From the NCBI GenBank assembly GCA_026398065.1, contig JAPLTR010000271.1, positions 1-57,429 of the forward strand: 57,429 bases of DNA. Direction: 5' to 3'. The DNA is from Verrucomicrobiota bacterium (GTDB taxonomy: Bacteria > Verrucomicrobiota > Verrucomicrobiia > Opitutales > Opitutaceae). The translations under genes were made by a program, and so were the position numbers. The notes under the pieces were generated by a model, which searched no databases, was not told the DNA's origin, and saw only the letters and a list, made by a program, of their open reading frames with translations. Positions 4,913 to 27,680 of the stretch are shown piece by piece (position 1 is the first letter of the stretch; every line of letters starts with the position of its first letter).

Positions 4913-5418
4913 GATTGCCGGTAGCTGAGATGCAGCCCGTTTTTCCCATACCAGGCCGAGTTCGCACAGGTATGGGTGGTGGTGAGACGGGCGCCGCCGC
5001 TCGTCAGGCGGCTGGAGGTGACGACCCAGGTCACGGTGAAGTTTACCTCGCGGATGTTCGTGACGGGGTCGGGATTCGTCACCGTTCGCGTGAGCGTGAA
5101 ACGCACGACAGCATTGGCCGTGTTGTTGTCGCCCAGCGCCAGCCGCGCCGCGTCAAACTGCGAATCGATCGTGAGCGTGGTGCTGGCGGTCGGCAGGGCG
5201 CTGATGGTCGACCAGGTGGCAAGGTACAGCTCCTCGATCTCGTGATTGATGATCTGCGTCGCGAGGGTCTGCCGGCGCGCGTGGTCCATGGTGGTGGACG
5301 TCACCGTCACAGCCTCGATCAGGCCGATGAAGCCCACCATCAGGATAAGCGTCGCCATCATCACTTCGATCACAGTGAAACCGGCGGAGCGGCGGAAAAT
5401 TTGAGCGAGGTTAGTCAA
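4909..5418 (-). CDS. Prepilin-type minor pilin (PilV-like)
   Basis: An in-frame TTG at 5418 gives the leader MTNLAQIFRRSAG|FTVIEVMMATLILMVGFIGL, a 13-aa leader with the G|F..E motif. The track ORF extends to 5529, but that would give an implausibly long Arg/Pro-rich leader. Confidence 0.65.
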   Translation of the reverse strand: MTNLAQIFRRSAGFTVIEVMMATLILMVGFIGLIEAVTVTSTTMDHARRQTLATQIINHEIEELYLATWSTISALPTASTTLTIDSQFDAARLALGDNNTANAVVRFTLTRTVTNPDPVTNIREVNFTVTWVVTSSRLTSGGARLTTTHTCANSAWYGKNGLHLSYRQS

Positions 5419-5686
5419 CGCGGGTGGGACAAAATCTGTTATGCACCCGGCGACACCTCCGCAAGCCCAAGGCGGGAGCGGCGGGCGCGCCCGACCGCAC
5501 CACCTCCTCAGGGAGGGTGCGGATCGCAACGGACGAAGGGGAAATCGGCGGGGGCGGGTGCATGGCGGCGATCAGCCGGTCCAATCGCGAGGGGAAGAAT
5601 TCCGCGCCATCCGATGGCGTCAAGGGGGTCATCGCCGCAATCCCTCCGTAGTGAGTGAGTGGGGGTAAGTACGCCGATCCATTCTG

Positions 5687-5816
5687 TCCCAATCCCGGGA
5701 TCGTTTTTTCCCGCATTGCACACAACCGGGCCGGCTCCGAACCGCGCAGCTAGTTCATATTATCTTTGATAAACAATGGTTTACGAACTTCTATCCGAGC
5801 TGGCACGCGCATTGCA
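5687..5816 (+). promoter_or_regulatory. Sigma54 promoter module P1: UAS palindrome, A/T tract and -24/-12 element
   Basis: TGGCACgcgcaTTGCA at 5801-5816 has exact GG-N10-GC spacing. The palindrome TCCCAatccCGGGA at 5687-5700 lies 101 nt upstream of the GG. An A/T-rich tract sits at 5752-5790. The ATG of the next ORF is 30 nt downstream. Confidence 0.8.
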
Positions 5817-5845
5817 AAGGGAGGGCTCAACTCACTCACATCACC

Positions 5846-6124
5846 ATGAAGACTTCCTTCACCGCCTTCTCGCTCATTCTCGCCGCCGGGTTTCCCGGCT
5901 CGCTCCTCGCCGAATTCGCCGGCGTTTCCCTGCCGGCGGCGCTCGAGCCCGGCACGACCTTCGGGGTCGCCGTGGCCGTCCTGACGCTCCTCACGGCGTT
6001 CTCCGACTACACCCGGCATCCCTCCGCGCTCGTCGCGGGCGCGGCCGGCGCGACGCGCGACTCCGCCCTCGCGTCCGCCACGCGGACCGACGCCGCCACG
6101 GAAGAACGCCGCCTCGCCGCGTGA
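5846..6124 (+). CDS. Small (92 aa) secreted/membrane protein, first gene behind sigma54 promoter P1
   Basis: MKTSFTAFSLILAAGFPGSLLA|EF looks like a signal peptide, and a second hydrophobic segment follows (TTFGVAVAVLTLLTAF). Third-codon positions are G/C-rich in this frame. I recognised no similar family. Confidence 0.45.
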   Translation: MKTSFTAFSLILAAGFPGSLLAEFAGVSLPAALEPGTTFGVAVAVLTLLTAFSDYTRHPSALVAGAAGATRDSALASATRTDAATEERRLAA

Positions 6125-6192
6125 ACCTGACGGCGCAACTTCCTTCCGCCCGTCATCTTGACAGTCCCGACGCGCCCCTTGTCACTTCCCGC

Positions 6193-7560
6193 ATGTCAGA
6201 CGCGCCCCCGCATCGCATTTTGATCGCCGACGACCAGGCGGACGTGCTCGAAGCCCTCCGCCTGCTCCTCAAATGCGAGGGCTACGCCACCGAAGTCGTC
6301 AAGTCCCCGGCTGCCGTCATCAAGGCCGTCGAGGCCCGCGACTACGCGCTGGTGCTGATGGACCTCAACTACGCGCGTGACACCACGAGCGGCCAGGAAG
6401 GCCTGGAGCTGTTGCAAAAGCTCGCCGCCATCGACGCGACGCTCCCGGTCGTCGTCATGACCGCGTGGGCCAGCGTCGATGTCGCCGTCGAGGCCATGCG
6501 CCGCGGCGCGCGCGACTTCGTCACCAAGCCGTGGGACAACCCGCGTCTCCTCGCGATCGTCCGCAATCAGATCGACCTCGGCCACGCCGTCCGCGCCTAC
6601 CGCCGCCTCGAGCAGGAAAACCAACTGCTCCGCACGTCCGGCAAATCCGGCCCGACGCTCATCGCGCAGTCCGCCGCGATGCGTCCGGTCCTCGACGTGA
6701 TCGCGCGCGTCGGCCCGTCCGACGCCAATGTCCTCATCACCGGCGAAAACGGCACCGGCAAGGGCCTCGTCGCCCAGGCGCTGCACGCGGTGTCCGCGCG
6801 CGCGGGAAAACCGTTCATCTCCGTCAACATGGGCGGCCTCCCCGAAGGGGTCTTTGAGAGCGAACTCGTCGGCCACGTGCGTGGCGCGTTCACCGACGCG
6901 AAATCCGACCGCGCGGGCCGCTTCGAACTCGCCGACAGCGGCACGCTCTTCCTCGACGAGATCGGCAACATCCCGCTCTCCCAGCAGGCCAAGATTCTCC
7001 GGACGATCGAGACGGGCGAATTCGAGCGCGTCGGCTCGTCGCGGACCTTCCGCGCCAACGTCCGCCTCGTCTCCGCCACCAACTCCGACCTGCAGGCCGA
7101 GGTCGCCGCGGGGAAATTCCGCCAGGACCTCCTCTTCCGCCTCAACACGATCCAGCTCCACCTGCCGCCGCTCCGCGAGCGCCGCGAGGACATCGAGCTG
7201 CTCGCGCAGCATTTCCTGAAGGCGCACGTCGACCGCTACCGGAAACCGATCACGGGCTTCGACGCCTCCGCGCTCGACGCGCTCCGCGCCTATTCCTGGC
7301 CCGGCAATGTCCGCGAGCTCGACCACTCCGTCGAACGCGGCGTGCTCATGGCGCCCGGCAAAGTCGTGCGCGCCGCCGACCTCGGCCTCAACGCCGCGCA
7401 GGCCACGCCACGGCTCGAGGAAATGAGCATCGAGGAAGTGGAGGCGTTTCTCATCAAGAAGACCCTCGCCCGCTGCGACGGCAACGCCCGCAAGGCCGCC
7501 GAGGAGCTCGGCCTGAGCCGCAGCGCGTTTTACCGGCGGCTGGAAAAGTATGGGCTCTGA
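6193..7560 (+). CDS. NtrC-family sigma54-dependent response regulator (enhancer-binding protein)
   Basis: 455 aa from ATG 6193. Receiver domain (ILIADDQADVLE...LVLMDLNY). AAA+ sigma54-interaction domain with GENGTGKG Walker A, a GAFTDA loop and LFLDEIG Walker B. C-terminal Fis-type HTH (ARKAAEELGLSRSAFYRRLEKYGL). The upstream part of the track ORF (5776-6192) is an Arg-rich read-through and is not counted. Confidence 0.9.
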   Translation: MSDAPPHRILIADDQADVLEALRLLLKCEGYATEVVKSPAAVIKAVEARDYALVLMDLNYARDTTSGQEGLELLQKLAAIDATLPVVVMTAWASVDVAVEAMRRGARDFVTKPWDNPRLLAIVRNQIDLGHAVRAYRRLEQENQLLRTSGKSGPTLIAQSAAMRPVLDVIARVGPSDANVLITGENGTGKGLVAQALHAVSARAGKPFISVNMGGLPEGVFESELVGHVRGAFTDAKSDRAGRFELADSGTLFLDEIGNIPLSQQAKILRTIETGEFERVGSSRTFRANVRLVSATNSDLQAEVAAGKFRQDLLFRLNTIQLHLPPLRERREDIELLAQHFLKAHVDRYRKPITGFDASALDALRAYSWPGNVRELDHSVERGVLMAPGKVVRAADLGLNAAQATPRLEEMSIEEVEAFLIKKTLARCDGNARKAAEELGLSRSAFYRRLEKYGL

Positions 7561-7676: not shown

Positions 7677-9026
7677 ATGCCTAAATCCAACCGCAGGTTC
7701 TCCCACGATCAGGTCGTATTTTTCTACGCGCTGCTCGCCGGTCTCCCCTCGGTCGCCGTCGCCATGTATTTCCTCTGGCTGGACGATCCCGCGCCCGCGG
7801 CGAAGATCCAGTGGACGTTCACGCTGCTGATCGCGGGGTTCTGGTTCGGTTTCGCCGCCGCCACGCGCAACCGCGTCGTGCGCCCGCTGCAGACGATGGC
7901 CAACCTCCTCTCCGCGCTGCGCGAGGGCGACTTCGCCGTCCGCGCCCGCGGCGCCCGCCGGGACGAGGCGCTGGGCGACGTGATGTTCGAGATCAACACG
8001 CTCAGCCGCACGCTGCAGGACCAGCGCCTCAACGCCCTCGAGGCCACCGCCCTCCTCCGCACCGTGATGGAGGAGATCAACATCTCCATTTTTGCCTTCG
8101 ACGCCGACCGCAAGCTCCGCCTCGCCAACCAGGCCGCGCAGCTCCTGCTCAACAAGCCCGCCGAGCGCATCCTCGGCCGCGACGCCGCCGAGATCGGCCT
8201 CGCCGACTGCCTCGACGGCGAGCCGACCCGCCTCCTCCAGATCACGTTCCCCGGCGGCACCGGCCGCTGGGGCATGCGGCGCAGCCAGTTTCGCGAGGGC
8301 GGGCGGCCGCACCAGCTCGTCGTCATCGCCGATCTCAGCCGCACGTTGCGCGAGGAGGAGCTGCTCGCGTGGCAGCGCCTCGTGCGCGTCCTCGGCCACG
8401 AACTCAACAACTCGCTCGCGCCGATCAAATCCATCGCCGGCAGCCTCAGCTCGCTCCTCCGCAATCCCAAGCGCGCGCCGGACTGGGAGGACGACATGCG
8501 CAGCGGCCTCGACATCATCGCGTCGCGTTCCGAGAGCCTCGCGCGCTTCATGCAGGCCTACGCGCGCCTCGCCCGCCTCCCCCAGCCCACCGTCGCGCCC
8601 TGCGAGATCACGGACCTCGTGCACCGCGTCGTCGCGCTCGAGCGCCGCCTCCCGGTGCGCGTGCTCGGCGGGCCGAACCTCACGCTCGCCTGCGACGCCG
8701 CGCAGATCGAACAGGTCCTGATCAACCTCGTGAAAAACGCCGTCGAGGCCGCGCTCGAGCAGCGCGCCGAGGGCCAGGCCGACGCCACCGTGCGCCTCTC
8801 GTGGCGCAGGACGGGCAACGTCGCCGAACTCCTCGTCGAGGACGACGGACCGGGCATCGCGCAGACCTCGAACCTCTTCGTCCCGTTCTTCACGACGAAG
8901 CCCGAGGGCTCCGGCATCGGCCTCGTCCTCTGCCGCCAGATCGCCGAGAACCACGGCGGCTCCCTCGCCCTCGCCAACCGCCCCGGCGACACCGGCTGCC
9001 TCGCGACCCTGCGGCTGCCGGCGTAA
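7677..9026 (+). CDS. Sensor histidine kinase (2 TM, minimal external loop, HAMP, PAS-like, HisKA, HATPase)
   Basis: 449 aa. TM1 is VVFFYALLAGLPSVAVAMYFLWL, the loop is DDPAPAAKIQ, and TM2 is WTFTLLIAGFWFGFAAA. H-box LGHELNNSLAPI. ATP-lid boxes NLVKNAVEA, DDGPGI and GSGIGL. Confidence 0.9.
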   Translation: MPKSNRRFSHDQVVFFYALLAGLPSVAVAMYFLWLDDPAPAAKIQWTFTLLIAGFWFGFAAATRNRVVRPLQTMANLLSALREGDFAVRARGARRDEALGDVMFEINTLSRTLQDQRLNALEATALLRTVMEEINISIFAFDADRKLRLANQAAQLLLNKPAERILGRDAAEIGLADCLDGEPTRLLQITFPGGTGRWGMRRSQFREGGRPHQLVVIADLSRTLREEELLAWQRLVRVLGHELNNSLAPIKSIAGSLSSLLRNPKRAPDWEDDMRSGLDIIASRSESLARFMQAYARLARLPQPTVAPCEITDLVHRVVALERRLPVRVLGGPNLTLACDAAQIEQVLINLVKNAVEAALEQRAEGQADATVRLSWRRTGNVAELLVEDDGPGIAQTSNLFVPFFTTKPEGSGIGLVLCRQIAENHGGSLALANRPGDTGCLATLRLPA

Positions 9027-9065: not shown

Positions 9066-11729
9066 CTATCTCTCGATGAACAGCGCCCGCTGGTCGCCGA
9101 TCCCGATCCACTGTTTGGCGAACGGCAGGTAGTTGATCAGCACGCCGTTGTTGCCCTGCATCGCGTTCTTCCGGCCGTCGAACAGCATGAGCGCCCCGTG
9201 GGTGTCGTCGACCGGCACGTAGATCGCAACGAGCGTGTCGATCGTCTCCGGGATGTAGTTCGCCAGCTGCTGGCGTGCGCGCGCCTCCGCGTAGTGCAGT
9301 TGCTCGGGGGTCGGATGAAACTGCCCCTGCACGGTGATTTCAAACGGCTCCTCAATCAGCGAGCGGCGGTAGGGCCACTTGAGTTTGGCATTGCGCAGCT
9401 CCTCTGCCGTCGGCGCGTGCGGCGGACTCACGATCTGCCGCCAGGCGGTGAGATGCATCGCGAGGGACGGGGGATGCCGGATCCCCTGCCGCACGCTCCC
9501 GACCGCGAGCAGGACGCCCAGAACCCAGCCCGCGGCCACCGCGGCCCAGGTCGCCGCCTGGCGCGGGGGAAAGTTCAGCCGCACCTCGTCGGCGGGGATC
9601 GCCACCGTCTTCACCTCGGCGCAGATCCGCTTCAGTTCCGCCGTCGCGGCCGCCAGCGTCGTCGGCTGGCCGGTGGCGATGGCGAGGCGTCGGAGCTCCG
9701 TTTCACAGCGGCCGATCCCATCGCGCCAGGCCCAGGGGGTCGTCTCCGCGATCCAGCGGCCCACTGACACCGCCTGTTCACGGTTGGTCAGCAGCCGCAG
9801 GCCCAGGGCAAGCACGATGGGGGTCAGCCCCAGCAGCACGCCGGTCGGCCCCGGCACGTGGACCGCCAGCAGCAGGATGCCGCCGATGCCCGCCGCCGCA
9901 AACAGCCACCGCCGGCCAAACACCATCGGGCCCGCCTTCATCGCCAGCTCCAGCCGGCCCCAGAACACGATCTTCACCAGGGCCGCGGCCCGCTTCAGCA
10001 GCTCCGCGAGCCGCCGCTGCCGGACCTCTTCATGCGTGAGAAAACCGAACCGCGGCGCCTCCTGCTCCATCCGGGCGAGCACCAAAATCATCACGGGCGT
10101 CGGGTGCGGGACCGAGAAAACCCGCTCCACCGCGGCATCCGTCGTCATCGCATAGCGCGTTTTCATTTTCAGCCGGGTGGCCGTCAGCTCCGTTTCGCCG
10201 GTCAGCGCCAGCCGCCACAACGCCGCCGGATCGCCCAGGTCGGCCGGCTTCACGCCGACCTGTTTTTCAAAAAAGAGCTCCGCATCGAGGACCCATTTCA
10301 CCAGTTCCTCCAGCAGGTCCGCCGCGGTGTGGTCGTAGCGGCGCACCTGGGCCACCAGCGCCGGCTCGGACAGCACGATCAGCTCGGTGCGGAGGGTCGC
10401 AAACTCCTCCGGCCGATCGAGGGCCGCCCGCAGGTTTTCCGGATTCAACGCCTTTCCCTTCCACCGAAAATGCCCCTGCGCCAGGGAGTTTAGCGCGAGC
10501 GTCGCCACCACCAGGTGGCGGAGCTTGGGCTCGACCTTGGTCAGCGCGGTCGACTTCTCCAGTGCGCGCACCGACTCGATTTGCGCCCAGTCCCGGCGGT
10601 GCGTTTCCGATTCCGCCAGAAACTTGGCGAGCGTGCCGGCCTGGTTGGCGGCCAGCGCATGCTCCTCCACCCTCGCGCAATGCTCCGGGCCCAGCAGGCG
10701 GTCGGCCGCCTCCGCCGCGGAATGGCTGCGGCCGTCGATGCGAAAGAAACGTTCGAGCCGCGCGGAGTTGTAGCGTTCGACCGGCAGCTCGCCAGCCAGC
10801 CACGACCGCACGCTCTCCGCCCCCCACCGTCCGTCCATCGAGCTTGTCAGCAGGCCGCGCAACAGCCGCGCCAGCCGCGGCTCGAGCGCCCCCATCAGCT
10901 CCACCGCGCCGGCCCGCAACGTCCCGGTCGCTCGCTCAAACAGGAGCGCCTCGGCCAGCCCGCCCAGACTTTGCGGCAGACCCGCCCGCAGGTCGGGCGG
11001 CACCAGCGTCACTACGTGCCGGCCGATCATGAACTGCTGCACCACCCGGCCCACCGACCACCAGTCCCACGCGAGCAGGGCGGACCCGGGCGAATGCTTG
11101 AACAGCCCGGCCGTCTCCGGCGGCGCGTACAGCGGATCCGCCTCGATCATGATCAGGCCCTTCTGCTCGGTCTCGGTGACCCGGTCCAGTCCCCCCACGA
11201 CAAAGTGCGGGCCCGCCGGTTCCTCCCGGACGAAGATCCAGTCCGCGTTCAGTTGAAAATGCCCCAGTCCCGCGGCGTGCAGCGCCTCGACGGCCAGCGC
11301 CAGCTGCCTCACCAGTTCGGCCGTAACCTCCGCCGTCGGTTCGCTCTGATCCGCCCGCCAGCGCCGCAGCGAAACTCCCGCCACCCCCTCCCAAACCTGG
11401 ACCAGCCCGTCCGCCGTGAGGTGCGACTCGATCGGCCGCTGCCAGTGGGGACACGGGATTGCCCGCAGCCGTTCGAATCTCGCCGTCCGGCCCTTGACGT
11501 CGTCGGCCGCCGCAAACGTGCGCAACAGCACCCCTTCGCCGGTCGTGAGATCGGTCGCCTGATACCAACCGGTCGTCGCGTCCCCCCACACCCCGGACAC
11601 CTGATAGCGCCCGTTCCAACATGCTCCGACCACGACCCGCCCCGCCGCGGGCCCGGGGCGCGAAGAGGGGTCCTTCGCTTCCAGACCGACAGCCCCGGAG
11701 GCGGGGGAATCGATGGTTTCTGAGAGCAT
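9066..11729 (-). CDS. 887-aa membrane protein with an N-terminal degenerate Hanks-type kinase (pseudokinase) domain
   Basis: The kinase-fold landmarks are present but the catalytic residues are lost. VLLRTF replaces VAIK, HAAGLGHFQLNADWIFV replaces HRDLKPxN, GGLD replaces DFG, and YAPPE and WDWWSVGRVVQQFMIG are retained. A long helical middle region follows, then ~3 TM helices (aa ~608-745) and a ~140-aa C-terminal domain of unknown type. Confidence 0.6.
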   Translation of the reverse strand: MLSETIDSPASGAVGLEAKDPSSRPGPAAGRVVVGACWNGRYQVSGVWGDATTGWYQATDLTTGEGVLLRTFAAADDVKGRTARFERLRAIPCPHWQRPIESHLTADGLVQVWEGVAGVSLRRWRADQSEPTAEVTAELVRQLALAVEALHAAGLGHFQLNADWIFVREEPAGPHFVVGGLDRVTETEQKGLIMIEADPLYAPPETAGLFKHSPGSALLAWDWWSVGRVVQQFMIGRHVVTLVPPDLRAGLPQSLGGLAEALLFERATGTLRAGAVELMGALEPRLARLLRGLLTSSMDGRWGAESVRSWLAGELPVERYNSARLERFFRIDGRSHSAAEAADRLLGPEHCARVEEHALAANQAGTLAKFLAESETHRRDWAQIESVRALEKSTALTKVEPKLRHLVVATLALNSLAQGHFRWKGKALNPENLRAALDRPEEFATLRTELIVLSEPALVAQVRRYDHTAADLLEELVKWVLDAELFFEKQVGVKPADLGDPAALWRLALTGETELTATRLKMKTRYAMTTDAAVERVFSVPHPTPVMILVLARMEQEAPRFGFLTHEEVRQRRLAELLKRAAALVKIVFWGRLELAMKAGPMVFGRRWLFAAAGIGGILLLAVHVPGPTGVLLGLTPIVLALGLRLLTNREQAVSVGRWIAETTPWAWRDGIGRCETELRRLAIATGQPTTLAAATAELKRICAEVKTVAIPADEVRLNFPPRQAATWAAVAAGWVLGVLLAVGSVRQGIRHPPSLAMHLTAWRQIVSPPHAPTAEELRNAKLKWPYRRSLIEEPFEITVQGQFHPTPEQLHYAEARARQQLANYIPETIDTLVAIYVPVDDTHGALMLFDGRKNAMQGNNGVLINYLPFAKQWIGIGDQRALFIER

Positions 11730-11848: not shown

Positions 11849-11977
11849 TCCCACTTCTGGGAAATCCACGTCCCACCAACGCGGCCTGGATCGCCGACCC
11901 GTTTTCCATCGAAAATTTCTTTCCACTCTTTTCCAACGACTTATCCACCGTCGCATCCCTTGGGCACGACCGCTGCA
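11849..11977 (+). promoter_or_regulatory. Sigma54 promoter module P2 (upstream of the MacA-like gene)
   Basis: GGGCACgaccgCTGCA at 11962-11977 has GG-N10-GC spacing. The palindrome TCCCActtcTGGGA at 11849-11862 lies 100 nt upstream of the GG. AAATTTCT at 11913-11920 sits about 50 nt upstream of the GG. Confidence 0.7.
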
Positions 11978-11998: not shown

Positions 11999-13252
11999 AT
12001 GGACATCGCGCGCCCCGACCAATCCAAGCTCAAGCGGAAGAAACTCATTATCTATATCTCGGTCGCCGTCGTCATCCTCGTCGGCATCACCGTCCTCTTG
12101 GCGCGCCTCAAGCCCGCCGCCCCCACCGTCGAGCGCAACCTCGTCTGGATCGATACGGTGAAGCGCGGCCAGATGCTCCGCCAGGTCCGCGGTCTCGGCA
12201 CCCTCGTTCCCGAGGAGATCCGCTGGATCGCCGCCCGCACCCAGGGGCGCGTCGACAAGATCATCCTCCGCCCCGGCGCGATCGTCACTCCCGAGAGCGT
12301 GATCCTCATGCTCGCCAACCCCGACGTCGAGCAGGCCGCCGCCAACGCCGACTCCCAGCTCAAGGCCGCCGAGGCCGAACTCGCCAATCTCCGCGTCACC
12401 CTCCAGTCCGGCGTCCTCGCCGCCGAATCCGTCGCCGCCAGCGCCAAGGCCGACTACGAAACCTCCCGGCTCCGCTCCGAGGTCAACGAACAGCTCGCCA
12501 AGGACGGCCTCATCTCCGACCTCGACCGCCGCCTCTCCAAGGTCACCGCCGAACAGGCCGCCACCCGCAACGGCATCGAGCAAAAACGCTTCGCCTTCGC
12601 CCAGGACGCCATCGCCCCGCAGCTCGCGGTCAAACAGGCCGAGGTCGACCGCCTCCGCGCCCAGGCCCGCCTCCGCCGCGACGAACTCGAGGCCCTCACC
12701 GTCCGCTCCAGCATGAACGGCGTCCTCCAACTGCTCCCCGTCGAGGTCGGCGCGCAGGTCCAGCCCGGCTCCAACCTCGCCCGCGTCGCCGATCCCACCA
12801 GGCTCAAGGCCGAGATCCGCGTCGCCGAGACCCAGGCCAAGGACATCCTCAAGGGCCAGCTCGCCCAGGTCGACACGCGCAACGGCGTCGTCGAGGGCAC
12901 CGTCGCCCGCATCGATCCGTCCGTGCAAAACGGCACCGTCACCGTCGATGTGCTGATCACCGGCGCCCTCCCGAAGGGCGCGCGCCCCGACCTCTCCGTG
13001 GATGGCACCATCGAGCTCGAGCGCCTCACCGAGGTCGTCTACGTCGGCCGCCCCGCCTTCGGCCAGGAGAAGAGCGAGGTCGGCATCTTCAAGCTCGACG
13101 CCGAGGGCGCCTACGCCACCCGCACCCGCGTGAAGCTCGGCCGCAGCTCCGTGAACACCATCGAGATCGTCTCCGGCCTCCAGCCCGGCGACCGCGTGAT
13201 TCTCTCCGACATGTCGCCGTGGGATTCCAACGATCGCATCAAACTCAACTGA
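11999..13252 (+). CDS. MacA/HlyD-family periplasmic adaptor (membrane fusion protein)
   Basis: 417 aa from ATG 11999. Basic N-terminus plus a TM helix (KRKKLIIYISVAVVILVGITVLLA). Lipoyl/barrel-sandwich motifs (GRVDKIILRPGAIV, MNGVLQLLPVEVGAQVQPG). A long coiled-coil hairpin in between. Confidence 0.85.
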   Translation: MDIARPDQSKLKRKKLIIYISVAVVILVGITVLLARLKPAAPTVERNLVWIDTVKRGQMLRQVRGLGTLVPEEIRWIAARTQGRVDKIILRPGAIVTPESVILMLANPDVEQAAANADSQLKAAEAELANLRVTLQSGVLAAESVAASAKADYETSRLRSEVNEQLAKDGLISDLDRRLSKVTAEQAATRNGIEQKRFAFAQDAIAPQLAVKQAEVDRLRAQARLRRDELEALTVRSSMNGVLQLLPVEVGAQVQPGSNLARVADPTRLKAEIRVAETQAKDILKGQLAQVDTRNGVVEGTVARIDPSVQNGTVTVDVLITGALPKGARPDLSVDGTIELERLTEVVYVGRPAFGQEKSEVGIFKLDAEGAYATRTRVKLGRSSVNTIEIVSGLQPGDRVILSDMSPWDSNDRIKLN

Positions 13253-13444: not shown

Positions 13445-14146
13445 ATGTCCTCGACGAATCCCTCCCTCATCAAGCTCGACGGCGTCACCAAGGTCTTCCT
13501 CACCGACGAGGTTGAGACGCACGCCCTCTCTGGCATCCACCTCGACATCCGCCAAGGCGAGTACGTCGCCATCGCCGGCCCCTCCGGCTGCGGCAAGTCC
13601 ACCCTCCTCTCCATCCTCGGCCTCCTCGACTCCCCGAGCGACGGCACCTACACCCTCCACGGCCGCCCCGTCCAGCACCTCTCGCTCCCCGAACGCGCCC
13701 GCATCCGCAACCGCGAGATCGGCTTCATCTTTCAGTCGTTCAATCTCATCGGTGACCTCACCGTCTACGAAAACGTCGAGCTGCCCCTCACCTACCGCGG
13801 CATGCCCGCCAGCGAGCGCAAGGCCGCCGTCACCGCCGCCCTCGAGAAGGTCGGCATGGGCCACCGCGCCAAGCACCTCCCCTCCCAGCTCTCCGGCGGT
13901 CAGCAGCAGCGCGTCGCCGTCGCCCGCGCCCTCGCCGGCTCGCCCGCCGTCCTCCTCGCCGACGAGCCCACCGGCAATCTCGACTCGAAAAACGGCGACT
14001 CCGTCATGGCCCTCCTCGCCGACCTCCACAAGGGCGGCGCGACCATCGTGATGGTCACGCACGACACCCGCTTCGCCCGCCACGCCGAACGCACCATCCA
14101 CATCTTCGACGGTCGCGTCGTGCAGGAGCAGGTCGAGCAGCATTGA
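13445..14146 (+). CDS. MacB/LolD-type ABC transporter ATP-binding protein
   Basis: 233 aa. Walker A GPSGCGKST, Q-loop, signature LSGGQQQRVAVARAL, Walker B VLLADEPTGNLD, and H-loop VMVTHD. Confidence 0.92.
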   Translation: MSSTNPSLIKLDGVTKVFLTDEVETHALSGIHLDIRQGEYVAIAGPSGCGKSTLLSILGLLDSPSDGTYTLHGRPVQHLSLPERARIRNREIGFIFQSFNLIGDLTVYENVELPLTYRGMPASERKAAVTAALEKVGMGHRAKHLPSQLSGGQQQRVAVARALAGSPAVLLADEPTGNLDSKNGDSVMALLADLHKGGATIVMVTHDTRFARHAERTIHIFDGRVVQEQVEQH

Positions 14147-14214
14147 GCCGCGCGGCTCTGCGCCGCCCGGCGCCCAGGGTCTGATCAGCCCTCGCTTTCC
14201 CTCTTCCCCTTCCA

Positions 14215-16576
14215 GTGCTCTCCGACCTCCGCTTCGCTTTCCGCCAGCTCGCCAAGTCCCCCGGCTTCACCGTCGTCGCCGTCGTCGCCCTGGCCCTGGG
14301 CGTCGCCACCGCGACGACGATGTTCACGTTCTACAACGCGCTCGTCGTCCGGCCGATCCCGTTTCTCCTCCGTCCCCGATTTTAACGACATCCGGCGCAC
14401 GTCGCAGACCCTCGCCAACGCCCTCACGTCTTGGAACCGCACCTACATCCTCGGCACCGGCGAACGCCCGGAGCGCGCCCTCGGCTCCTGGATCACCGCC
14501 GATGCGTTTCAGACCCTCGGCGTCCAGCCCCACCTCGGCCGCCTCTTCCGTCCCGACGAGAGCAAACCCGGCTCCCCGCCCGTCGCGATCCTCAGCTATG
14601 CGCTCTGGAAGCGCTCGTACGGCGGATCGCCCGAGATCCTGAACCAGACCGTCACGCTCAACAACGCCCCGGTCACCGTCGTCGGCGTGATGCCCGAGGG
14701 CTTTGCCTTTCCCGAGCTTTCCCAGCTCTGGCAGCCCTTCCCCGACGACCAGCAGTCGTCCGAAAACGACCGCGGCTCCCACGGCTGGCCGATGTACGCG
14801 CGCATGAAGCCCGGCGTCACGATCGACCAGGTGCAGGCCGAGCTCGACACCCTCGCCGTCCGCCTCGAACAGGACCACCCGAAGACCAACAGCGGCCTGC
14901 GCTTCCGCGCGCTGCTCGTCCACGAGGAGGCCGTGCGCGACGAAAAGCTCGCCCTCCGGCTCATGATGGGCGCGGTCATCGCCGTCCTCCTCATCGCCTG
15001 CGGCAACGTCGCCAACCTCCTCCTCGCGCGCGCCGCCAGCCGCACGCGCGAGATCGCCATCCGCGCCGCCCTCGGCGCCGGCCGGCTCCGGCTCTTCGGC
15101 CAGCTCCTCACCGAGAGCCTCCTGCTCGGGCTGTGCGGCGGCGTCGCCGGGCTCATGCTCACGTTCTGGCAGATCGACTTCGTCCTGGGTTTCATCCCGA
15201 TCGAGATCCCGTTTTGGATCCGCTTCGACCTCGACTGGCGCGTGCTCACCTTCGCGCTCGTCGCCACCCTCGGGTCGAGCCTGCTCTTCGGCCTCGTCCC
15301 CGCGCTCCAGCTCTCCCGCCCCGACCTCGCCCATGAGCTCAAGGACGGCGCCCGCGGCGGCACCGGCTCCGGCCGCTCCCGCCGCTTCCGCAGCTACCTC
15401 GTCGTCGCCCAGCTCGCGCTCACCCTCGTCCTCCTCGTCGTCGCCGGCCTGATGACCCGCAGTTTCCTCCACCTGCAAAACACCGATCCCGGCCTCGATC
15501 CCCGCGGCGTCTTCACCTTCCGCACCGGCATCCCGCAGACCATCGAGCGGGACGAAAAGGTCTGCGCCAAATTCTTCGCGACCGCCGAACAGCGCCTGCG
15601 CGAGATCCCCGGCGTCGAGCAGGCCGGCTTCATCAGCTACCTCCCGGTCGCCAACAACTCCAACTACCACGGCTTCACCCTCGAGGGCCGCCCCGAGGCC
15701 CCGCCCGGCCAGAATCCCCACGCGCTCTTCCGCGTCGCCACACCCGGCGTCTTCCCGGCGCTGCGCATCCCCCTGCGGCGCGGCCGGCTCTTCGATGAAC
15801 GCGACCGCGCCGACAGCCCGCCCGTCGCCCTCGTCAGCGAAGCCTTCGTCCGCCAGCATTTCGCCTCCGAGGATCCCCTCGGGCGCCGCCTCTCCCTCGA
15901 GGAGCAGAAGGACGGCGAGCCGAAACGTTACGCCACCATCGTCGGCGTCCTCGGCGACATCGTCCAGCGCCCCACGGCCAAGGAACCCGAGCCATCCATC
16001 TGGATGGCGGCCGCCCAGAAACCCGAGTATTTCATGAACGCCGTCATGCGGGTGCAGGGCGATCCGGCCTCCTACCAACAGGCCGCCAAGGACGCCGTGG
16101 TCGCCGCCCGCGCCGGCATCCCCCTCTACAATCCCGCTCCGCTGACCAAGATCGCGAGCGACGCGATGTGGTCCCAGCGGTTCTTCGGCGGACTCTTCGT
16201 GGGCTTCGCCGGTGTCGCCCTCTTCCTCGCCGCCCTCGGCATCTACGGGGTCATGGCCTACTCCGTCTCCCAGCGCACCCAGGAGATCGGCGTCCGCATG
16301 GCGCTCGGCGCCGAGCCCGGGGTCGTCGTGCTCATGATCCTGAAGCAGGGACTCCTGCTCGTCGCCATCGGTCTCGCCCTTGGTTTCATCGGCGCCTGGA
16401 TCACCGCCCAGTTCCTCGCGAGCCTCCTCCACGGCATCGAACCCCACGATCCGCCCACGTTCGGCTGGGTAACTGTGATCCTGATCGGCGTGGCCTGGGT
16501 GGCCTGCTGGCTTCCGGCGCGACGGGCCGGCGCGCTGAGCAGCCGCTGGCGTTCGCGCGGCGTCAGCCGGCCATGA
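14215..16576 (+). pseudogene. ADOP-type duplicated FtsX permease, paralogue 1: 5' deletion/frameshift and non-canonical 3' end
   Basis: GTG 14215 gives the family N-terminus (M)LSDLRFAFRQLAKSPGFTVVAVVALALGVATATTMF...RPIPF, then a TAA at ~14384. The family sequence resumes in the +1 frame at ~14366 (SVPDFNDIRRTSQTL...), with roughly 20-25 residues missing. The C-terminus ends LPARRAGALSSRWRSRGVSRP instead of the family ending RRAxRVDPMxALRxE. Confidence 0.7.
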
Positions 16577-16619: not shown

Positions 16620-16832
16620 TCAGAGCCCTGCGGCCGACAACTCGCGGTCCGTGCGTTCAAAATCCGCCCGCGAAAATTTCCTCCCTGCGTCCATCTCGCG
16701 CATGAGCATGCTCACGCGTGACCGTCGCGCCGCCGCTTGCGGCTCCGCCTGCTCGCGCAAAAACTCCGCGAGCTCCAGTTTTTCAGCCGCAGTCAGTGCC
16801 TCGGCCGCTTTCTTCATTTCGGCGAGCGACAT
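16620..16832 (-). CDS. Small antitoxin-like protein (addiction-module-component-like), orphan
   Basis: 70 aa: MSLAEMKKAAEALTAAEKLELAEFLREQ...EMDAGRKFSRADFERTDRELS. It resembles the short helical 'putative addiction module component' antitoxins. It lies antisense inside the permease operon, and no intact toxin gene follows. Confidence 0.35.
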   Translation of the reverse strand: MSLAEMKKAAEALTAAEKLELAEFLREQAEPQAAARRSRVSMLMREMDAGRKFSRADFERTDRELSAAGL

Positions 16833-16912
16833 GCTGTCACCATAGCCGCCCACCCCTCTTCGTCAATCCACCACCCCCTCGCCGCGCGTTGCCCGTTGCT
16901 CGCTCCGTCCCC

Positions 16913-19266
16913 GTGCCCGACCTCCGCCACGCCTTCCGCTCCCTCGCCCGCACCCCCGGCTTCACCGTCGTGGCGGCGCTGACGCTCGCGCTCGGCATCG
17001 GGGCCTCCACCGCGATCTTCTCCGTCGTCCACGCCCTGCTCCTCTCGCCCCTCCGCTACGGCGATGCCCGCCCCCTGGTCCAGCTCCGCTCCTCGCACCC
17101 CCAGCAGGGCTTCGCCGGTCTCGCCCCCGCCACGGTCATGGAGATCGCGACCACCGCGCAATCCTTCGAGACCGTCGCGGCGCAGACTTACTACTACTAC
17201 AACCTCACCAAGATCGGCACCGCCGCCCGCATCACCGGCCTCCAGGCCACCGCCGACTATTTCAAACTCTGGCAGGTGGCCCCGCTCCTCGGCCGCACGT
17301 GGAACGCCGACGATTGCCGTGCCGCCAGCCCGCCCGTCGTCGTCCTCTCCGAACAGATCTGGCGCAAATACTACGCCGCCAACCCCGGGATCCTCGACCA
17401 GCCCATCACCATCGACGACGTCGCCGTGACCGTCATCGGCATCATGCCCGCGTCCTTCCAGGATCCATGGGGCAACGGCGGGCTCTGGCGTCCGATCGCG
17501 ACGGACGGCGACGCTCCGCGCGACCGCAGCTCCCGCTACTGGAGCCCGTTCGCGCGGCTCAGGCCCGGCGTCACCCTCGCGCAGGCCAACGCCGAGCTCG
17601 CCACCCTGGCCGCCCGTCTCAGTGAGACGTATCCGGAAAACTATCGCGGCTGGACGCTCGTCACGGGCGACCTCCAGCGCGCCGTCGTCGGCGACTACCG
17701 CACCGGCCTACTCGTCATCCTCGGCGCCGTCGGCTGCGTCATGCTCATCACCTGCACCAACGTCGCCGGCCTCAACGTCGTGCGCGCCGCGGCCCGCCGC
17801 AAGGAGCTCGCCGTGCGCATCGCCCTCGGCGCGTCCCGCGGCCAGCTCCTCGGCGAACTCCTCGCCGAGAGCCTGCTCCTCGCCCTGATCGGCGGCGTCG
17901 GCGGCGTGCTGCTCGGCAGCTGGGGCATCGACGCCCTCCTCGCCACCCTCCCCGGTGGCGGCGGCATCCCTCGCGCCGACGAGATCGCCCTCAACGGCCC
18001 CGTGCTGGCCGCCGCCCTCCTCCTCACCCTCGTCACCGGTCTCGTCTTCGGCCTCGCCCCGGGCTTCACCGCCGCGCGCGTCGACGCCAACGACGCGCTC
18101 AAGGCCACCGCCCGCTCCTCCGCCCATCCCGCCGTGCGGCGGGTCCGCTCCATCCTCGTCGTCACCGAGATCGCCCTCGACGTCTTCCGAGACGACGACA
18201 CCGGTGAGATGCCAGCCGTGTGCTTTCCCTGACCGTCTCCCTCTCCGACCAACGCTACAAGACCCCCGCGCAGCGCCTCGATTTCTACCACCGCGCCCTC
18301 ACCGAAGTGGCCGCCGTGCCCGGCGTCGCCGCCGCGGGCTTCACCAACACGTCGCCCTTCCGCTGGGGCATTCCCGTCACTCTCGTCCCGGTCGGCCGCG
18401 ACGGCACGGTCGCCGAGGCCAATGTCCCACAGACCTACTACGACTCCGTCAGCGCCGACTACTTCCGCGCGGCGGGCATTCCGCTGCTGTCCGGCCGGCT
18501 CTTCGACGCTTCGGACCGGGCCGGCGCCAAGCCCACGGTCATCCTCAGCGAGACCACCGCCCGCCGCCTTTTCGACACCGCCGATCCGGTCGGTCGCGAG
18601 GTCGCCAGCGCCGCCAACCCCGCCTCGCGTTTCGAGGTCGTCGGCGTCGTCGGCGACGTCCGTCGCCTGGGCCTCTCCAGCACGCCGCCGCCCCAGGCCT
18701 ATCGCTCGCTCGACCAGCGCCCCACCGCCTTCGCCACGCTCATGGTGCGCACCACGCTTCCGCCCAACACCCTCGCCAAGTCCGTGACCGCCGCCCTCGC
18801 CCACGTCGATCCCGACACGCCCATTTCCGAGGTGTCCGCCATGGACGCGGTGGTCAGCCGCACGGTCACCCAGCCCCGGCTCTACGTGATCCTCTTCACG
18901 GTCTTCGCCCTGCTCGCCCTGCTCCTCGCCGCCATCGGCCTGTACGGCCTGGTCGCCTACAGCATCGCGCAGCGCACGCGCGAATTCGGCATCCGCGCCG
19001 CCCTCGGCGCCAGCCCCCGCGAGGTCCGCACCCTCGTCCTGCGCGAGGGCCTCCTCCTCGTCGGCGTCGGCCTCGCCCTCGGTTTCGTCGGCGCCCTGGT
19101 CGCCACGCGCTTCCTCGCGGAAATGATCACCGACACCTCCGTGCACGACCCGGTCGTCTTCGTCGTGGTCCCGCTCGTCCTCGCCGCCACCGCCCTCGCC
19201 GCCTGCCTCATCCCCGCCCGCCGCGCGATGCGCGTCGATCCGTCCGTCGCCCTGCGGACGGAGTAG
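16913..19266 (+). pseudogene. ADOP-type permease, paralogue 2: internal deletion/frameshift removing the first TM helix of the second FtsX half
   Basis: GTG 16913 gives (M)PDLRHAFRSLARTPGFTVVAALTLALGIGASTAIFS. The frame ends at 18232 after ...ILVVTEIAL-DVFRDDDTGEMPAVCFP*. The family sequence resumes in another frame from ~18208 (DASRVLSLTVSLSDQRY...) and runs to the canonical end RRAMRVDPSVALRTE*. About 24 conserved residues (ALVLLxGAGLLxRSF..VDPGF) are absent. Confidence 0.7.
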
Positions 19267-21860: not shown

Positions 21861-22193
21861 TTGGCCGCCTTGAAATCCAGCCTGTCCCGCCCCGACCCCG
21901 ACTTCCCCGCCTTTGTCAGCGAGCAGCTCGCCGCGATCCCCGCGCTCAAGAGCCGCCCGATGTTCGGCGCGCACGGCCTCTATTCCGGCGACACTTTCTT
22001 CGGGATCGTCTGGCGCGGCTCGCTCTATTTCCGGACCTCTCCCTCCACCGTCGCCGACTACGATGCCGCGAATGCCAGCTGGTTTCAGCCCAACCCCCAG
22101 CAGGCCCTGAAAACCTACCGCGAAGTCCCCGCCTCCGTCCTCGCCCGTCCGGCCTCGCTCCTCGCGTGGGCCCAACGCGCCATCGCCTGCTGA
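21861..22193 (+). CDS. TfoX N-terminal-domain protein
   Basis: 110 aa with a TTG start. RPMFGAHGLYSGDTFFGIVWRGSLYFRTS... matches the TfoX_N pattern (MFGG.GLY..G..F......LY.K). Confidence 0.6.
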   Translation: MAALKSSLSRPDPDFPAFVSEQLAAIPALKSRPMFGAHGLYSGDTFFGIVWRGSLYFRTSPSTVADYDAANASWFQPNPQQALKTYREVPASVLARPASLLAWAQRAIAC

Positions 22194-22250: not shown

Positions 22251-22379
22251 TCCCATTTCTGGGATGACGACGTTCCATCGTCGGACGCGCCGGCGCGCCC
22301 GTCCCGGCTTGGCTAAATTTTTAAGCGTTGCCCCGCCGGGCTTTGCCGCGCGACCCCGCCCCCGGGCACGCCCTCTGCA
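22251..22379 (+). promoter_or_regulatory. Sigma54 promoter module P3 (upstream of permease paralogue 4)
   Basis: GGGCACgccctCTGCA at 22364-22379 has GG-N10-GC spacing. The palindrome TCCCAtttcTGGGA at 22251-22264 lies 100 nt upstream of the GG. AAATTTTT at 22315-22322 sits about 50 nt upstream of the GG. Confidence 0.7.
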
Positions 22380-22489: not shown

Positions 22490-25012
22490 ATGCTCCTCGA
22501 AACCTTCCTCCAAGACCTCCGCCTCGGCGTCCGCGTGCTCATCAAGGAAAAGAGCTTCTGCGCCCTCGCCGTCGCCGTCCTCGCCCTCGGCATCTGCGCG
22601 GTCACCACCCAGTTCAGCGTCGTCAACGGCGTCATGCTCCGCGGCTTCTCGTTTCCCAACGCCGACCGCCTGATGAGTGTGCAGTTCATCGATCCCGCGC
22701 CCGCCCAGCCAAACCAGTTCGGCAACAACACCCAGGTCTTCGCCCTCGACTACCAGGAGATCGCCGCCAGCCAGAAATCCTTCGACCTCGTGGCCGCCTA
22801 CATCAACGGCTCCACCGTCAACCTCACCTACGAGGGCAAGCCCGAGCGCTACACCGGCGCCTACGTCACGGAAAACTTCTTCAAGATTCTCGGCGTCACC
22901 CCGGCCCGCGGCCGCGACTTCACCGCCGCCGACAACCGGCCCGGCGCCGAGAAGACCGCCCTCATCTCCCACGAGCTCTGGCAGGCCAATTTCGGCGGCG
23001 CCCCCGACATCGTCGGCAAATCTGTCCGCCTCAACGGCCGCGCCGCCGTGATCATCGGCGTGATGCCCCCGGGCTTCGCGTTCCCCGTCAACGAGCAGCT
23101 CTGGATCCCTCTCTTCACCGAGTTCCCGCCCAAGCCCCGCAACGAGCGTAATGCCCAGGGCAATACCCCCGCCGTCATCGGCCTGCTCCGCCCCGGCGTC
23201 AGCGTCGAACAGGCCAACAGCGAGATCTCCACGTTCGCCACGCGCCTCGCGCAGGACTTCCCCGACAGCAACAAGCAGTTCAGCGTCGGCCTCGTCCAGC
23301 CGCTCATCCGCACCTTCACCCCCGTCCAGATCCGGGGCCTCCTGCTCTCGATGCTCGGGGTCTGCGTCGCCGTCCTCTTCCTCGCCTGCTCGAACGTCAT
23401 GAACATGCAGTTCGCGCGCGCCACCCTCCGGGCCAAGGAGCTCGCCATCCGCTCCTCCCTCGGCGCGACCCGCTGGCGCCTCGTCCGCCAGATGCTCACC
23501 GAGAGCCTCCTCCTCGCCACCATCGGCGGCGTGGTCGGCGTCATCCTGGCCTACAAGGCCACCGACTTCCTCCAGGCCACCGTCAAGAACCTCCCCAACC
23601 CCATCCCGTCCTACATCACCTTCGACATCGATGGCCGCGTCCTCGCGCTCATCGTCGCCATCACGATGCTCGCCGCCATCGTCTCCGGCGTCGTCCCCGC
23701 CTGGCTGGCCTCGCACGCCAACCCCAACGACGCCCTCAAGGAGGGCGGCCGCGGCAACACCTCCCGCGCCATCAACTTCATCACGCGCGGCCTCGTCGTG
23801 TTCCAGATTTTCCTCACCTGCATCATCCTCATCGCCTCGTTCCTCCAGTTTCAGTCCATCCTCCGCCAGCAGAAGCTCGAGTACGGCTACAACACCACCG
23901 CCCTCGTCTCCGCCCGCATGGGGCTCATGGACGGCGACTACCCGACCGGCGACGCCCGCCGCCTCTTCTACGACCGCCTGCTCCGCGAGCTCCGCGCCTC
24001 CCCCGAGGTCGAGGCCGCCGCCCTCACCAGCCGCTTCCGCATGACCTTCGCCGGCAACGGCCCGATCGAGATCGAGGGCCGCGAGTACAAGGAGAACCGC
24101 GACCGCCCCAACGCCAACTTCGAGAACGTCACCGACGGCTACTTCGCCACGCTCGGTCAGAAGCTCCTCGAGGGCCGCGATTTCACGGCCGACGACACCG
24201 ACCTCCGGCAGCCCGTCGCCGTCGTGAATGCCTTCTTCGCCAAGAAATATTTTGGCACCGGGAGCGCCCTCGGCCGCCGCTTCCGCACCGTCGGCAACAA
24301 CGGCCAGCTCTTCGGAGCGTGGCGCACTATCGTCGGCGTCGTCTCCGATGTTCGGATGCTCGGCCCGTTCAACAATCCCAATGTCGACGCCGCCGGCTTC
24401 TACGTGCCGCTGTACTCGACCGTCTTCGGCCCCGCCGCCGCCCCCGTCGGCCAGCAGTTCACCACTGTCCTCGTCAAACCCCGTGGCGTCCCCGCCGCCA
24501 CCTTCGCCAACAACCTCCGCCGCCTCACCCAGCGCGCCGACGCCAATCTCCCGCTCTACTTCGTCGGCACCCCCGCCGAGAACATCGACAGCTTCCTCGG
24601 CCAGAACCGCGTGCTCGCCGCGATGTTCAGCACCTTCGGCGTCGTCGCGATGATTCTCGCCGCCGTCGGCCTCTACGGCGTCACCAGCTTCTCCGTCAAT
24701 CAGCGCACGTCGGAATTCGGCATCCGCATGGCCCTCGGCGCCGACCAGACCAACATCCTCGTCATGGTCCTCCGTCAGGGCTCCGTGCAGCTTGCCCTCG
24801 GCCTTGTCTTCGGCCTCGGCCTCGCCCTGCTCATCGCGATCCTCGGCGCCGAGGCCATCGGCAATGCCCTTTCCAACATGATCAGCCCGAGCGACCCGCT
24901 CACGTACCTCGCCGTCGCCGTCCTCCTCTCGGTCGTCTCCTTCGTCGCCACGCTCATCCCCGCCCGCCGCGCCACCCGCGTCGACCCCATGATCGCGCTC
25001 CGGGCGGAGTAG
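22490..25012 (+). CDS. ADOP-type permease, paralogue 4 (intact)
   Basis: 840 aa from ATG 22490. MLLETFLQDLRLGVRVLIKEKSFCALAVAVLALGICAVTTQFS... Ends RRATRVDPMIALRAE*. Confidence 0.88.
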   Translation: MLLETFLQDLRLGVRVLIKEKSFCALAVAVLALGICAVTTQFSVVNGVMLRGFSFPNADRLMSVQFIDPAPAQPNQFGNNTQVFALDYQEIAASQKSFDLVAAYINGSTVNLTYEGKPERYTGAYVTENFFKILGVTPARGRDFTAADNRPGAEKTALISHELWQANFGGAPDIVGKSVRLNGRAAVIIGVMPPGFAFPVNEQLWIPLFTEFPPKPRNERNAQGNTPAVIGLLRPGVSVEQANSEISTFATRLAQDFPDSNKQFSVGLVQPLIRTFTPVQIRGLLLSMLGVCVAVLFLACSNVMNMQFARATLRAKELAIRSSLGATRWRLVRQMLTESLLLATIGGVVGVILAYKATDFLQATVKNLPNPIPSYITFDIDGRVLALIVAITMLAAIVSGVVPAWLASHANPNDALKEGGRGNTSRAINFITRGLVVFQIFLTCIILIASFLQFQSILRQQKLEYGYNTTALVSARMGLMDGDYPTGDARRLFYDRLLRELRASPEVEAAALTSRFRMTFAGNGPIEIEGREYKENRDRPNANFENVTDGYFATLGQKLLEGRDFTADDTDLRQPVAVVNAFFAKKYFGTGSALGRRFRTVGNNGQLFGAWRTIVGVVSDVRMLGPFNNPNVDAAGFYVPLYSTVFGPAAAPVGQQFTTVLVKPRGVPAATFANNLRRLTQRADANLPLYFVGTPAENIDSFLGQNRVLAAMFSTFGVVAMILAAVGLYGVTSFSVNQRTSEFGIRMALGADQTNILVMVLRQGSVQLALGLVFGLGLALLIAILGAEAIGNALSNMISPSDPLTYLAVAVLLSVVSFVATLIPARRATRVDPMIALRAE

Positions 25013-27568: not shown

Positions 27569-27586
27569 CGATCACCAACCAGCCGT

Positions 27587-27614
27587 CTGCATTCGACCTT
27601 CGTCATTGGTCATT
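27587..27614 (+). repeat. 4 x 7-bp tandem repeat (CTGCATT CGACCTT CGTCATT GGTCATT)
   Basis: Read directly. Same NNNCATT family as 25073, 30145, 35070 and 40634. Confidence 0.85.
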
Positions 27615-27646
27615 TCCCCTCCCGCAACCACCCCGCGGCCCCGCCG

Positions 27647-27680
27647 AATCGAAAATCGAGAATCCCAAATCGAAAATTCC
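27647..27680 (+). repeat. A/T-rich heptad element AATCGAA AATCGAG AATCCCA AATCGAA AATTCC abutting the ATG
   Basis: 33/34 identical to 25094-25127. Directly precedes ATG 27681. Confidence 0.9.

Follow-up and report, generated by a model that had tools for sequence, protein, structure and literature searches.

A probable sigma54-dependent promoter with a tandem enhancer upstream of an NtrC-type regulator operon in the Opitutaceae, and the exporter regulon to which it appears to belong

The window analysed here is a stretch of 57,429 nucleotides from a bacterium of the Opitutaceae (Verrucomicrobiota; assembly GCA_026398065.1, contig JAPLTR010000271.1, positions 1 to 57,429 of the forward strand). 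We describe a promoter within it, P1, which lies upstream of a small open reading frame (ORF), a gene for an NtrC-type regulator and a gene for a histidine kinase, and which is itself preceded by a palindrome. We propose that P1 functions as a sigma54-dependent promoter of the classical three-part design and that it forms the autoregulatory arm of a regulon of exporter genes, a reading to which we assign a probability of about 0.78. Taken separately, P1 is very likely to work as a sigma54 promoter with an enhancer, and the sequence comparisons make it probable that the neighbouring regulator acts on P1 and thereby raises its own expression. The architecture is the standard one for sigma54 promoters; the mechanism is unsurprising and changes no concept.

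The P1 promoter and its tandem enhancer

The elements of the P1 region are as follows.

5801–5816, plus strand: sigma54 −24/−12 promoter P1, TGGCAC-GCGCA-TTGCA; exact match to the consensus, 27.0 bits, with orthologous promoters in relatives
5687–5700, plus strand: enhancer site 1, dyad TCCCA-N4-CGGGA, centred at about −133 from the predicted start; phased, found in 64 of 80 loci
5709–5713, plus strand: enhancer site 2, TCCCG, a left half-site two helical turns (22 bp) past site 1 and centred at about −111
5752–5800, plus strand: A/T-rich spacer, 32% G+C, a probable DNA-bending region; A/T tract and TTA kept across modules
5771–5783, plus strand: IHF-like core AAACAATGGTTTA, preceded by an A/T tract and coinciding with the conserved cAA-N4-TTA of the family

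P1 (TGGCACGCGCATTGCA) is composed of TGGCAC (5801–5806), the spacer GCGCA (5807–5811) and TTGCA (5812–5816), and it matches the extended sigma54 consensus TGGCAC-N5-TTGCW at every specified position, with the GG and GC dinucleotides exactly 10 nt apart. It is the only match on both strands of the window, compared with 0.01 expected from dinucleotide-preserving shuffles. When two mismatches are allowed there are 15 matches in the window against 16.1 by chance, so that on sequence alone the perfect P1 site is the only one to stand out. Its position weight matrix score is 27.0 bits using a matrix trained only on loci outside the window. The element is oriented along the plus strand, within a non-coding gap of 427 bp that separates the small ORF from a pilin-like gene whose likely start is near 5418. 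We place the predicted transcription start near 5827, 12 nt past the C of the GC dinucleotide, which would put the ATG of the small ORF, at 5846, 19 nt further on. The initial annotation had read this element as a sigma54 promoter, with an A/T-rich stretch of about 50 nt before it and a palindrome at 5687–5700. The coordinates of both motifs are exact, the G+C content of 5750–5799 is 0.32 against a window mean of 0.68, and the promoter reading itself was borne out by the comparison that follows, in which the −24/−12 element and the palindrome are found to be retained together and in helical phase.

Related loci were collected using the regulator as a query and one genome per species, giving 80 loci (L001–L080). 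L001–L072 are 77–97% identical and come mostly from Opitutaceae or unclassified Verrucomicrobiota, and L073–L080 share approximately 70% identity and carry the labels Chthoniobacterales, Udaeobacter, Bryobacterales or Limnocylindrales. We counted a module as present where the palindrome core, with one mismatch allowed, and a promoter both occur no more than 900 nt upstream of the regulator. On this definition the palindrome and −24/−12 module lies upstream of the orthologous NtrC-type regulator in 64 of the 80 loci, mostly Opitutaceae; among the other 16, three are on contigs too short to tell. A TGGCA-type −24/−12 element is found upstream of the regulator in most loci, and those missed by the first pattern carry TGGCAC-N5-(T/G/C)AGCA, in which GG and GC are retained. 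Apart from these elements the surrounding intergenic DNA cannot be aligned even among close relatives, which marks the conserved elements as phylogenetic footprints.

The window and the 80 loci together contain 124 palindrome–promoter pairs, compared with 3.7 expected by chance, of which 118 have the same orientation as the regulator gene. Measured between the initial T of the palindrome and that of TGGCAC, the spacing falls into three groups: 111–114 bp (n = 77), 120–125 bp (n = 37) and 133–134 bp (n = 5); for the family as a whole the longest class extends to 136 bp. The spacing thus changes in steps of about 10–11 bp, which is the pattern to be expected if the activator on the enhancer and the polymerase on the promoter must face the same side of the helix. 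A 16-mer, TGGTAGCGCGCTTGCA, which occurs about 100–780 nt from the enhancer of the regulator in L014, L028, L034, L048 and L071, mimics a −24/−12 element and was set aside as a false positive of the promoter scan; it looks like part of a tRNA gene, with an anticodon-loop-like CTTGCAT. Rfam and tRNA scans of the window itself gave no matches.

The palindrome, TCCCAATCCCGGGA, is an imperfect inverted repeat with TCCC and GGGA arms around a 6-nt centre. The fifth pair, A opposite C, is mismatched, and the perfect 8-mer TCCCGGGA embedded in it is incidental. It starts 114 bp upstream of TGGCAC, and the enhancer scores 26.6 bits with a matrix derived from non-window loci only. Across 118 distinct modules the dyad has the consensus TCCCR-N4-YGGGA, in which position +4 is always a purine and +9 always a pyrimidine. 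A second TCCC is present at +22 to +25 in 97–100% of these modules, though it was not demanded by the search, and a purine at +26 and CG at +31/+32 are conserved at 83–87%. The palindrome, which is conserved throughout the family as an enhancer dyad, therefore reads as the strong dyad of a tandem enhancer whose degenerate second dyad would lie two helical turns downstream. This defines an enhancer consensus, TCCCR-N4-YGGGA-N8-TCCCR.

A simple scan called the same palindrome as a terminator-like site (GTCCCAATCCCGGGAT followed by CGTTTTTTCC, 5686–5701 plus a T-run), and one could suppose that it is an intrinsic terminator, or that the whole match arose by chance. We regard this as scarcely credible. 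There is one terminator-like match in the window, the same as the shuffle mean of 1.0; no plus-strand gene ends upstream of the palindrome; and the T-run is missing at the other three modules in the window (P2–P4, described below) and at the orthologous sites. The half-sites are invariant in sequence and show no compensatory changes, and a stem would be just 4–5 bp long. The terminator was accordingly dropped, and a chance origin of the enhancer–promoter module is excluded by its conservation and phasing.

Between enhancer and promoter, the family profile anchored on TGGCAC has an A/T tract at −49 to −40, T at −35/−34, A at −26, and TTA at −20 to −18, the three positions of which are conserved at 87%, 68% and 59% across modules. 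In the window, the core at 5771–5783 fits eight of the nine specified positions of WATCAANNNNTTR, a consensus which is that of Escherichia coli IHF, from another phylum. The spacers of 76 of the 118 modules contain a match to the IHF core with at most two mismatches. Across the family, conservation of the A/T tract and TTA is clear and that of the ATCAA part is weak. An IHF/HU-type bending protein would be the likely ligand of the spacer, judging from these motifs.

To the left of P1, on the minus strand, is a pseudopilin-like operon with N_methyl motifs, a DUF7305 protein and a PilO-like protein, the first gene of which most likely starts at a TTG near 5418, giving a 13-residue leader before G|FTVIEV. 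PilS-PilR control of a sigma54-dependent pilin gene is a known arrangement, and with a divergent operon of this kind adjoining the module we considered whether the regulator is PilR-like and the module governs the pilus-like genes. This is very improbable. The best leftward sigma54-like score in 5419–5830 is −7.8 bits, compared with +27 for P1, and there are no minus-strand matches anywhere in the window, in keeping with the earlier statement that no sigma54 element points toward the pilus genes; the gene context, with small ORF, regulator and kinase on the plus strand, is also as first described. The asymmetric second site of the enhancer always faces the rightward promoter. Furthermore, the left flank is occupied by the pilus-like operon in just a dozen or so of the closest loci among the 80, and elsewhere by an ABC/permease pair (ABC, ATP-binding cassette) or another gene. 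PilS-PilR control was ruled out on these grounds, the lack of a leftward −24/−12 element and the unconserved linkage; the pilus-like operon is outside the P1 system, and its adjacency is incidental and lineage-specific.

Proposed control of the regulator operon

The features downstream of P1, all on the same strand, are as follows.

5846–6124, plus strand: 92-residue protein, predicted to be transcribed first from P1; contains a DY(S/T/A)R motif and two hydrophobic segments and ends in ...RLAA
6158–6186, plus strand: candidate basal promoter, TTGACA (6158–6163)-N17-GTCACT (6181–6186)-N6-ATG; 35 nt from TTGACA to ATG
6193–7560, plus strand: NtrC-family sigma54 activator, complete, with Response_reg/REC, AAA+ Sigma54_activat (E = 5e-62), AAA_lid_14 and HTH_8 domains; loop motif GAFTDA
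7677–9026, plus strand: histidine kinase with two transmembrane helices, HAMP, PAS and HATPase domains; outer loop of about 10 residues

NCBIfam gave no equivalog at cutoff for either the regulator or the kinase. The names AtoC, PrsR, NtrC and ZraR were all rejected for the regulator because its scores are far below the cutoffs, and orthology to ZraR in particular was ruled out by an equivalog score of 355.8 bits against a cutoff of 760. Identity with the PEP-CTERM pair PrsR/PrsK was rejected on sub-cutoff scores and a differing kinase architecture. We note that the regulator is unusually conserved, with 70% identity between Verrucomicrobiota-labelled loci and those labelled Bryobacterales or Limnocylindrales. 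The kinase is of the intramembrane-sensing type, having almost no external sensing domain; in other phyla, such kinases receive their signal via partner membrane proteins or transporters.

Orthologues of the small ORF occur at the same position in 60 loci, all within L001–L072, with the ATG mostly 39–48 nt past the T of TGGCAC. Their C-termini end in AA in 47 of the 60 and in LAA in 30, and a homology search found only nine homologues, all unannotated or hypothetical. The C-terminus resembles an ssrA-type degradation signal, by analogy with which the protein may be turned over rapidly and modulate the kinase from the membrane.

We infer the enhancer-binding protein, the DNA bending, the start site, the read-through and the sensed signal from this layout, and propose that the system would work as follows. 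RNA polymerase carrying sigma54 would form a closed complex on TGGCAC-N5-TTGCA (5801–5816). The adjacent kinase would phosphorylate the NtrC-type regulator, whose gene lies 390 bp downstream, and the regulator would then assemble on the tandem enhancer formed by the 5687–5700 dyad and the 5709–5713 half-site. Bending of the A/T-rich, IHF-like stretch (5752–5800) would bring the activator into contact with the polymerase, and ATP hydrolysis would open the promoter, with transcription from near 5827. The transcript would encode the 92-residue membrane protein and, by read-through, the regulator and kinase, giving positive feedback, for which the TTGACA-N17-GTCACT element ahead of the regulator ATG would supply a basal level of regulator.

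Autoregulation had been proposed in the initial annotation, and its basis is now comparative. The module is conserved and phased, and the enhancer site is also present at the syntenic promoter of an HlyD gene next to the regulator–kinase pair in most loci. The small ORF is absent in L002, L003, L059, L062, L066 and L068, where the module stands directly before the regulator gene, at 39–186 nt, an arrangement which argues that the regulator itself is a target. In the window, no terminator-like site or stable hairpin was found in 6095–6200 (z = −0.42), and read-through across the gap between small ORF and regulator is therefore expected. Since the small ORF, regulator and kinase are all on the plus strand with no terminator between them, positive autoregulation is well supported; the feedback itself is a step that we infer.

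The element at 6158–6186 is present in 65 of 81 loci, at a fixed distance of 35 nt from TTGACA to the regulator ATG. Its −10 sequence is atypical (GT[C/G]ACT, unlike TATAAT), for which reason a simple sigma70 scan, which gave no promoter in 5300–6400, misses it; it was found by comparison only. We hypothesise that it is a promoter from which the regulator is transcribed as a leaderless or near-leaderless mRNA, a transcript that would provide the basal supply for the positive loop. The same fixed spacing would also fit an independent transcript, in which case P1 could serve the small membrane-protein gene only, with regulator and kinase expressed solely from this element and no strict autoregulation. 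The retention of the regulator in L073–L080, which mostly lack P1, is in keeping with that alternative. We nevertheless consider it unlikely: no terminator or stable hairpin is present in 6095–6200, six loci place the module directly before the regulator with no small ORF between them, and the glnALG operon of E. coli combines just such an internal basal promoter with sigma54 read-through.

The TCCC-N6-GGGA enhancer might instead be bound by another sigma54 activator whose gene lies outside the window, and the neighbouring regulator might have other targets. The group may encode several NtrC-type activators, and 57 kb of this genome is visible. The comparisons render such an arrangement improbable, in that modules flank the regulator–kinase pair on both sides in nearly every locus and in several families, no second sigma54 activator gene is present in the window, and the helix-turn-helix region of the regulator is, like the enhancer site, nearly invariant among orthologues.

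Several observations weigh against P1 as a sigma54 promoter under the control of its own regulator. The sigma54-contact loop (residues ~231–236) of the regulator and of each of its 80 orthologues reads GAFTDA, not GAFTGA. A report on VfmH of Dickeya calls the effect of this same change unknown (PMC10714721); GAFTDA is elsewhere listed among loop variants that would keep the ability to activate transcription (PMC4641369). The tight association of the regulator with conserved −24/−12 promoters argues that the variant works with sigma54. Site 2 of the P1 enhancer is only a half-site in this window, its right half being degenerate, and the match of the spacer to IHF depends on the E. coli consensus, which may not be that of the host. 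rpoN is not among the window genes scanned, and support for sigma54 comes at class level only, from a survey of Opitutia (PMC12316311). Given the conserved TTGACA element, most expression of the regulator could come from a promoter of its own. In the distant loci L073–L080 the module is kept before HlyD and is mostly absent before the regulator, and autoregulation is therefore not universal in the family. Finally, the counts, such as 64 of 80, are of loci many of which are related and which are thus not independent.

Exporter operons behind related modules

Four matches to TCCC-N6-GGGA-N8-TCCC, at up to one mismatch, are present in the window against 0.77 expected, all on the plus strand, and each of the four enhancers lies 112–114 bp ahead of a GG-N10-GC element. 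Matrices trained on loci outside the window recover exactly these four enhancers, at 25–33 bits, and none on the minus strand. For the promoters the corresponding scores are 27.0 bits (P1), 19.2 (P2) and 16.0 (P3), with P4 weak at 7.6 bits. The modules are listed here.

5687 (enhancer) and 5801 (promoter TGGCACGCGCATTGCA), plus strand: P1 module, 114 bp apart; small ORF, regulator and kinase downstream
11849–11977, plus strand: P2 module, enhancer TCCCACTTCTGGGA-N8-TCCC and promoter GGGCACGACCGCTGCA (11962–11977), 113 bp apart
22251–22379, plus strand: P3 module, enhancer TCCCATTTCTGGGA-N8-TTCC and promoter GGGCACGCCCTCTGCA (22364–22379), 113 bp apart
56072–56199, plus strand: P4 module, enhancer TCCCAAAAGTGGGA-N8-TTCC and weaker promoter CGGCACAGCCGTTGCT (56184–56199), 112 bp apart

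Downstream of P2 are genes for an HlyD adaptor (11999–13252), an ABC ATPase (13445–14146) and ADOP/FtsX permeases. P3 is followed by at least three ADOP duplicated permeases of full length (TIGR03434 score above cutoff) at 22490–25012, 25142–27568 and 27318–30095, and P4 by an 88-residue ORF of secreted type (56228–56494) and then an ABC ATPase gene. The order regulator–kinase–[module]–HlyD–ABC–permease is kept in most loci, both those from Opitutaceae and the Chthoniobacterales-like ones. From the shared motifs it is most likely that P1–P4 constitute one regulon of ABC exporter operons, of which P1 would be the autoregulatory arm.

A survey based on position-specific scoring matrices (2025, PMC12316311) reports, in the part considered here, that sigma54 promoters are enriched upstream of COG0577 permeases and COG1136 ATPases in Opitutia. 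These gene classes are those found behind P2–P4. That part of the survey gives no activator, enhancer sequence, spacing rule or autoregulatory promoter, which the present analysis adds. Francke et al. 2011 (PMC3162934) contains nothing on Verrucomicrobia or on these transporters, and a literature search on the regulation of ADOP permeases yielded nothing relevant.

Relation to known systems and neighbouring genes

The design of P1 is a textbook one, met here in a little-studied bacterial group. At E. coli glnAp2, a sigma54 −24/−12 promoter is activated by an NtrC-type regulator bound to tandem dyads more than 100 bp upstream, and in the glnALG (glnA-ntrB-ntrC) operon, whose first gene is not a regulator, read-through gives positive feedback and an internal promoter, glnLp, gives basal expression. 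P1 is similar in its tandem enhancer, its non-regulator first gene, the expected read-through and the candidate internal basal promoter. It differs in the gene order, with regulator before kinase; in the first gene, which encodes a 92-residue membrane protein rather than an enzyme; in the enhancer, TCCCR-N4-YGGGA compared with TGCACC-N5-GGTGCA; in the GAFTDA loop of the regulator; and in the genes controlled, which form an ABC exporter regulon and not a nitrogen assimilation system.

The enterobacterial ZraP/ZraS-ZraR system, which responds to envelope stress, is a sigma54 system that activates both its own operon and the gene of a small envelope protein from a shared enhancer, and ZraP is thought to feed back on the kinase. 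The combination of a sigma54 two-component system with a small envelope-type protein is common to both, and ZraR is among the best-scoring named families for our regulator, at sub-cutoff level. The Zra promoters, however, are divergent and the small protein is periplasmic, whereas at P1 the small protein is membrane-embedded and would be co-transcribed.

In the BceRS-BceAB systems of Firmicutes, which detoxify peptide antibiotics, an OmpR-type regulator acts on sigma-A promoters and the kinase induces its FtsX/MacB-fold transporters. These share with the P1 system a two-helix kinase with almost no external loop that is genetically coupled to ABC transporters of the FtsX/MacB fold. The differences are that here the activator is NtrC-type and sigma54-dependent, the kinase has HAMP and PAS domains, the permeases are ADOP duplicated permeases accompanied by an HlyD adaptor, and a small membrane protein is encoded in addition. 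The ADOP permease family is abundant in Verrucomicrobiota and Acidobacteriota. By analogy, we offer the tentative and rather doubtful suggestion that the regulon is a sigma54-wired counterpart of Bce-type detoxification modules, in which the ADOP/MacB exporters would be both output and sensor. The ...LAA terminus of the P1-induced two-helix mini-protein may then be a proteolytic tag that times the feedback. If the suggestion is true, P1 would be the first regulatory and experimental handle on "orphan" ADOP permeases.

A further GAFTDA regulator is DVU2106 (OrpR) of Desulfovibrio vulgaris, a single-component protein with a predicted regulon of DVU2105-2103 and DVU2107-2109 (PMC4641369). It is presented, in the portion of a second report considered here, as a sigma54-dependent activator acting together with IHF (PMC8359166). 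OrpR shares the loop variant with the P1 regulator; it differs in being single-component and in having targets described as cell-division related, where ours is a response regulator associated with exporters.

The value of these results is practical. They provide an enhancer consensus, a phased spacing and a likely activator for a regulon found across the Opitutaceae and related Verrucomicrobiota, which would control ABC exporters of ADOP/MacB type, a large family whose functions are uncharacterised. The motif allows the full regulon to be predicted in any genome of the group, and P1 could be used as a reporter for the inducing signal.

Some neighbouring genes are also worth describing. Three ADOP/MacB-type permease genes appear split across frames (approximately 14190–16576, 16718–19266 and 30229–32641). 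In one of them the N-terminal part, LSDLRFAFRQLAKSPGFT..., is read in one frame as far as about 14380, after which the sequence continues in the next frame. These genes are either frameshifted pseudogenes or assembly errors. Directly after the permease gene cluster is a DDE_3 transposase with HTH_23/HTH_32 domains (35148–36281, minus strand), belonging to an insertion sequence element. Between the histidine kinase and P2, the minus strand encodes a protein of 887 residues (9066–11729) with weak Ser/Thr-kinase/Kdo-kinase-like matches; since the HlyD module is much nearer to the kinase in most related loci, this gene looks like a lineage-specific insertion. A gene for a TfoX_N-domain protein of 110 residues (21861–22193, plus strand) ends 58 bp before the P3 enhancer, and in L049 a TfoX homologue follows the ABC gene as well.

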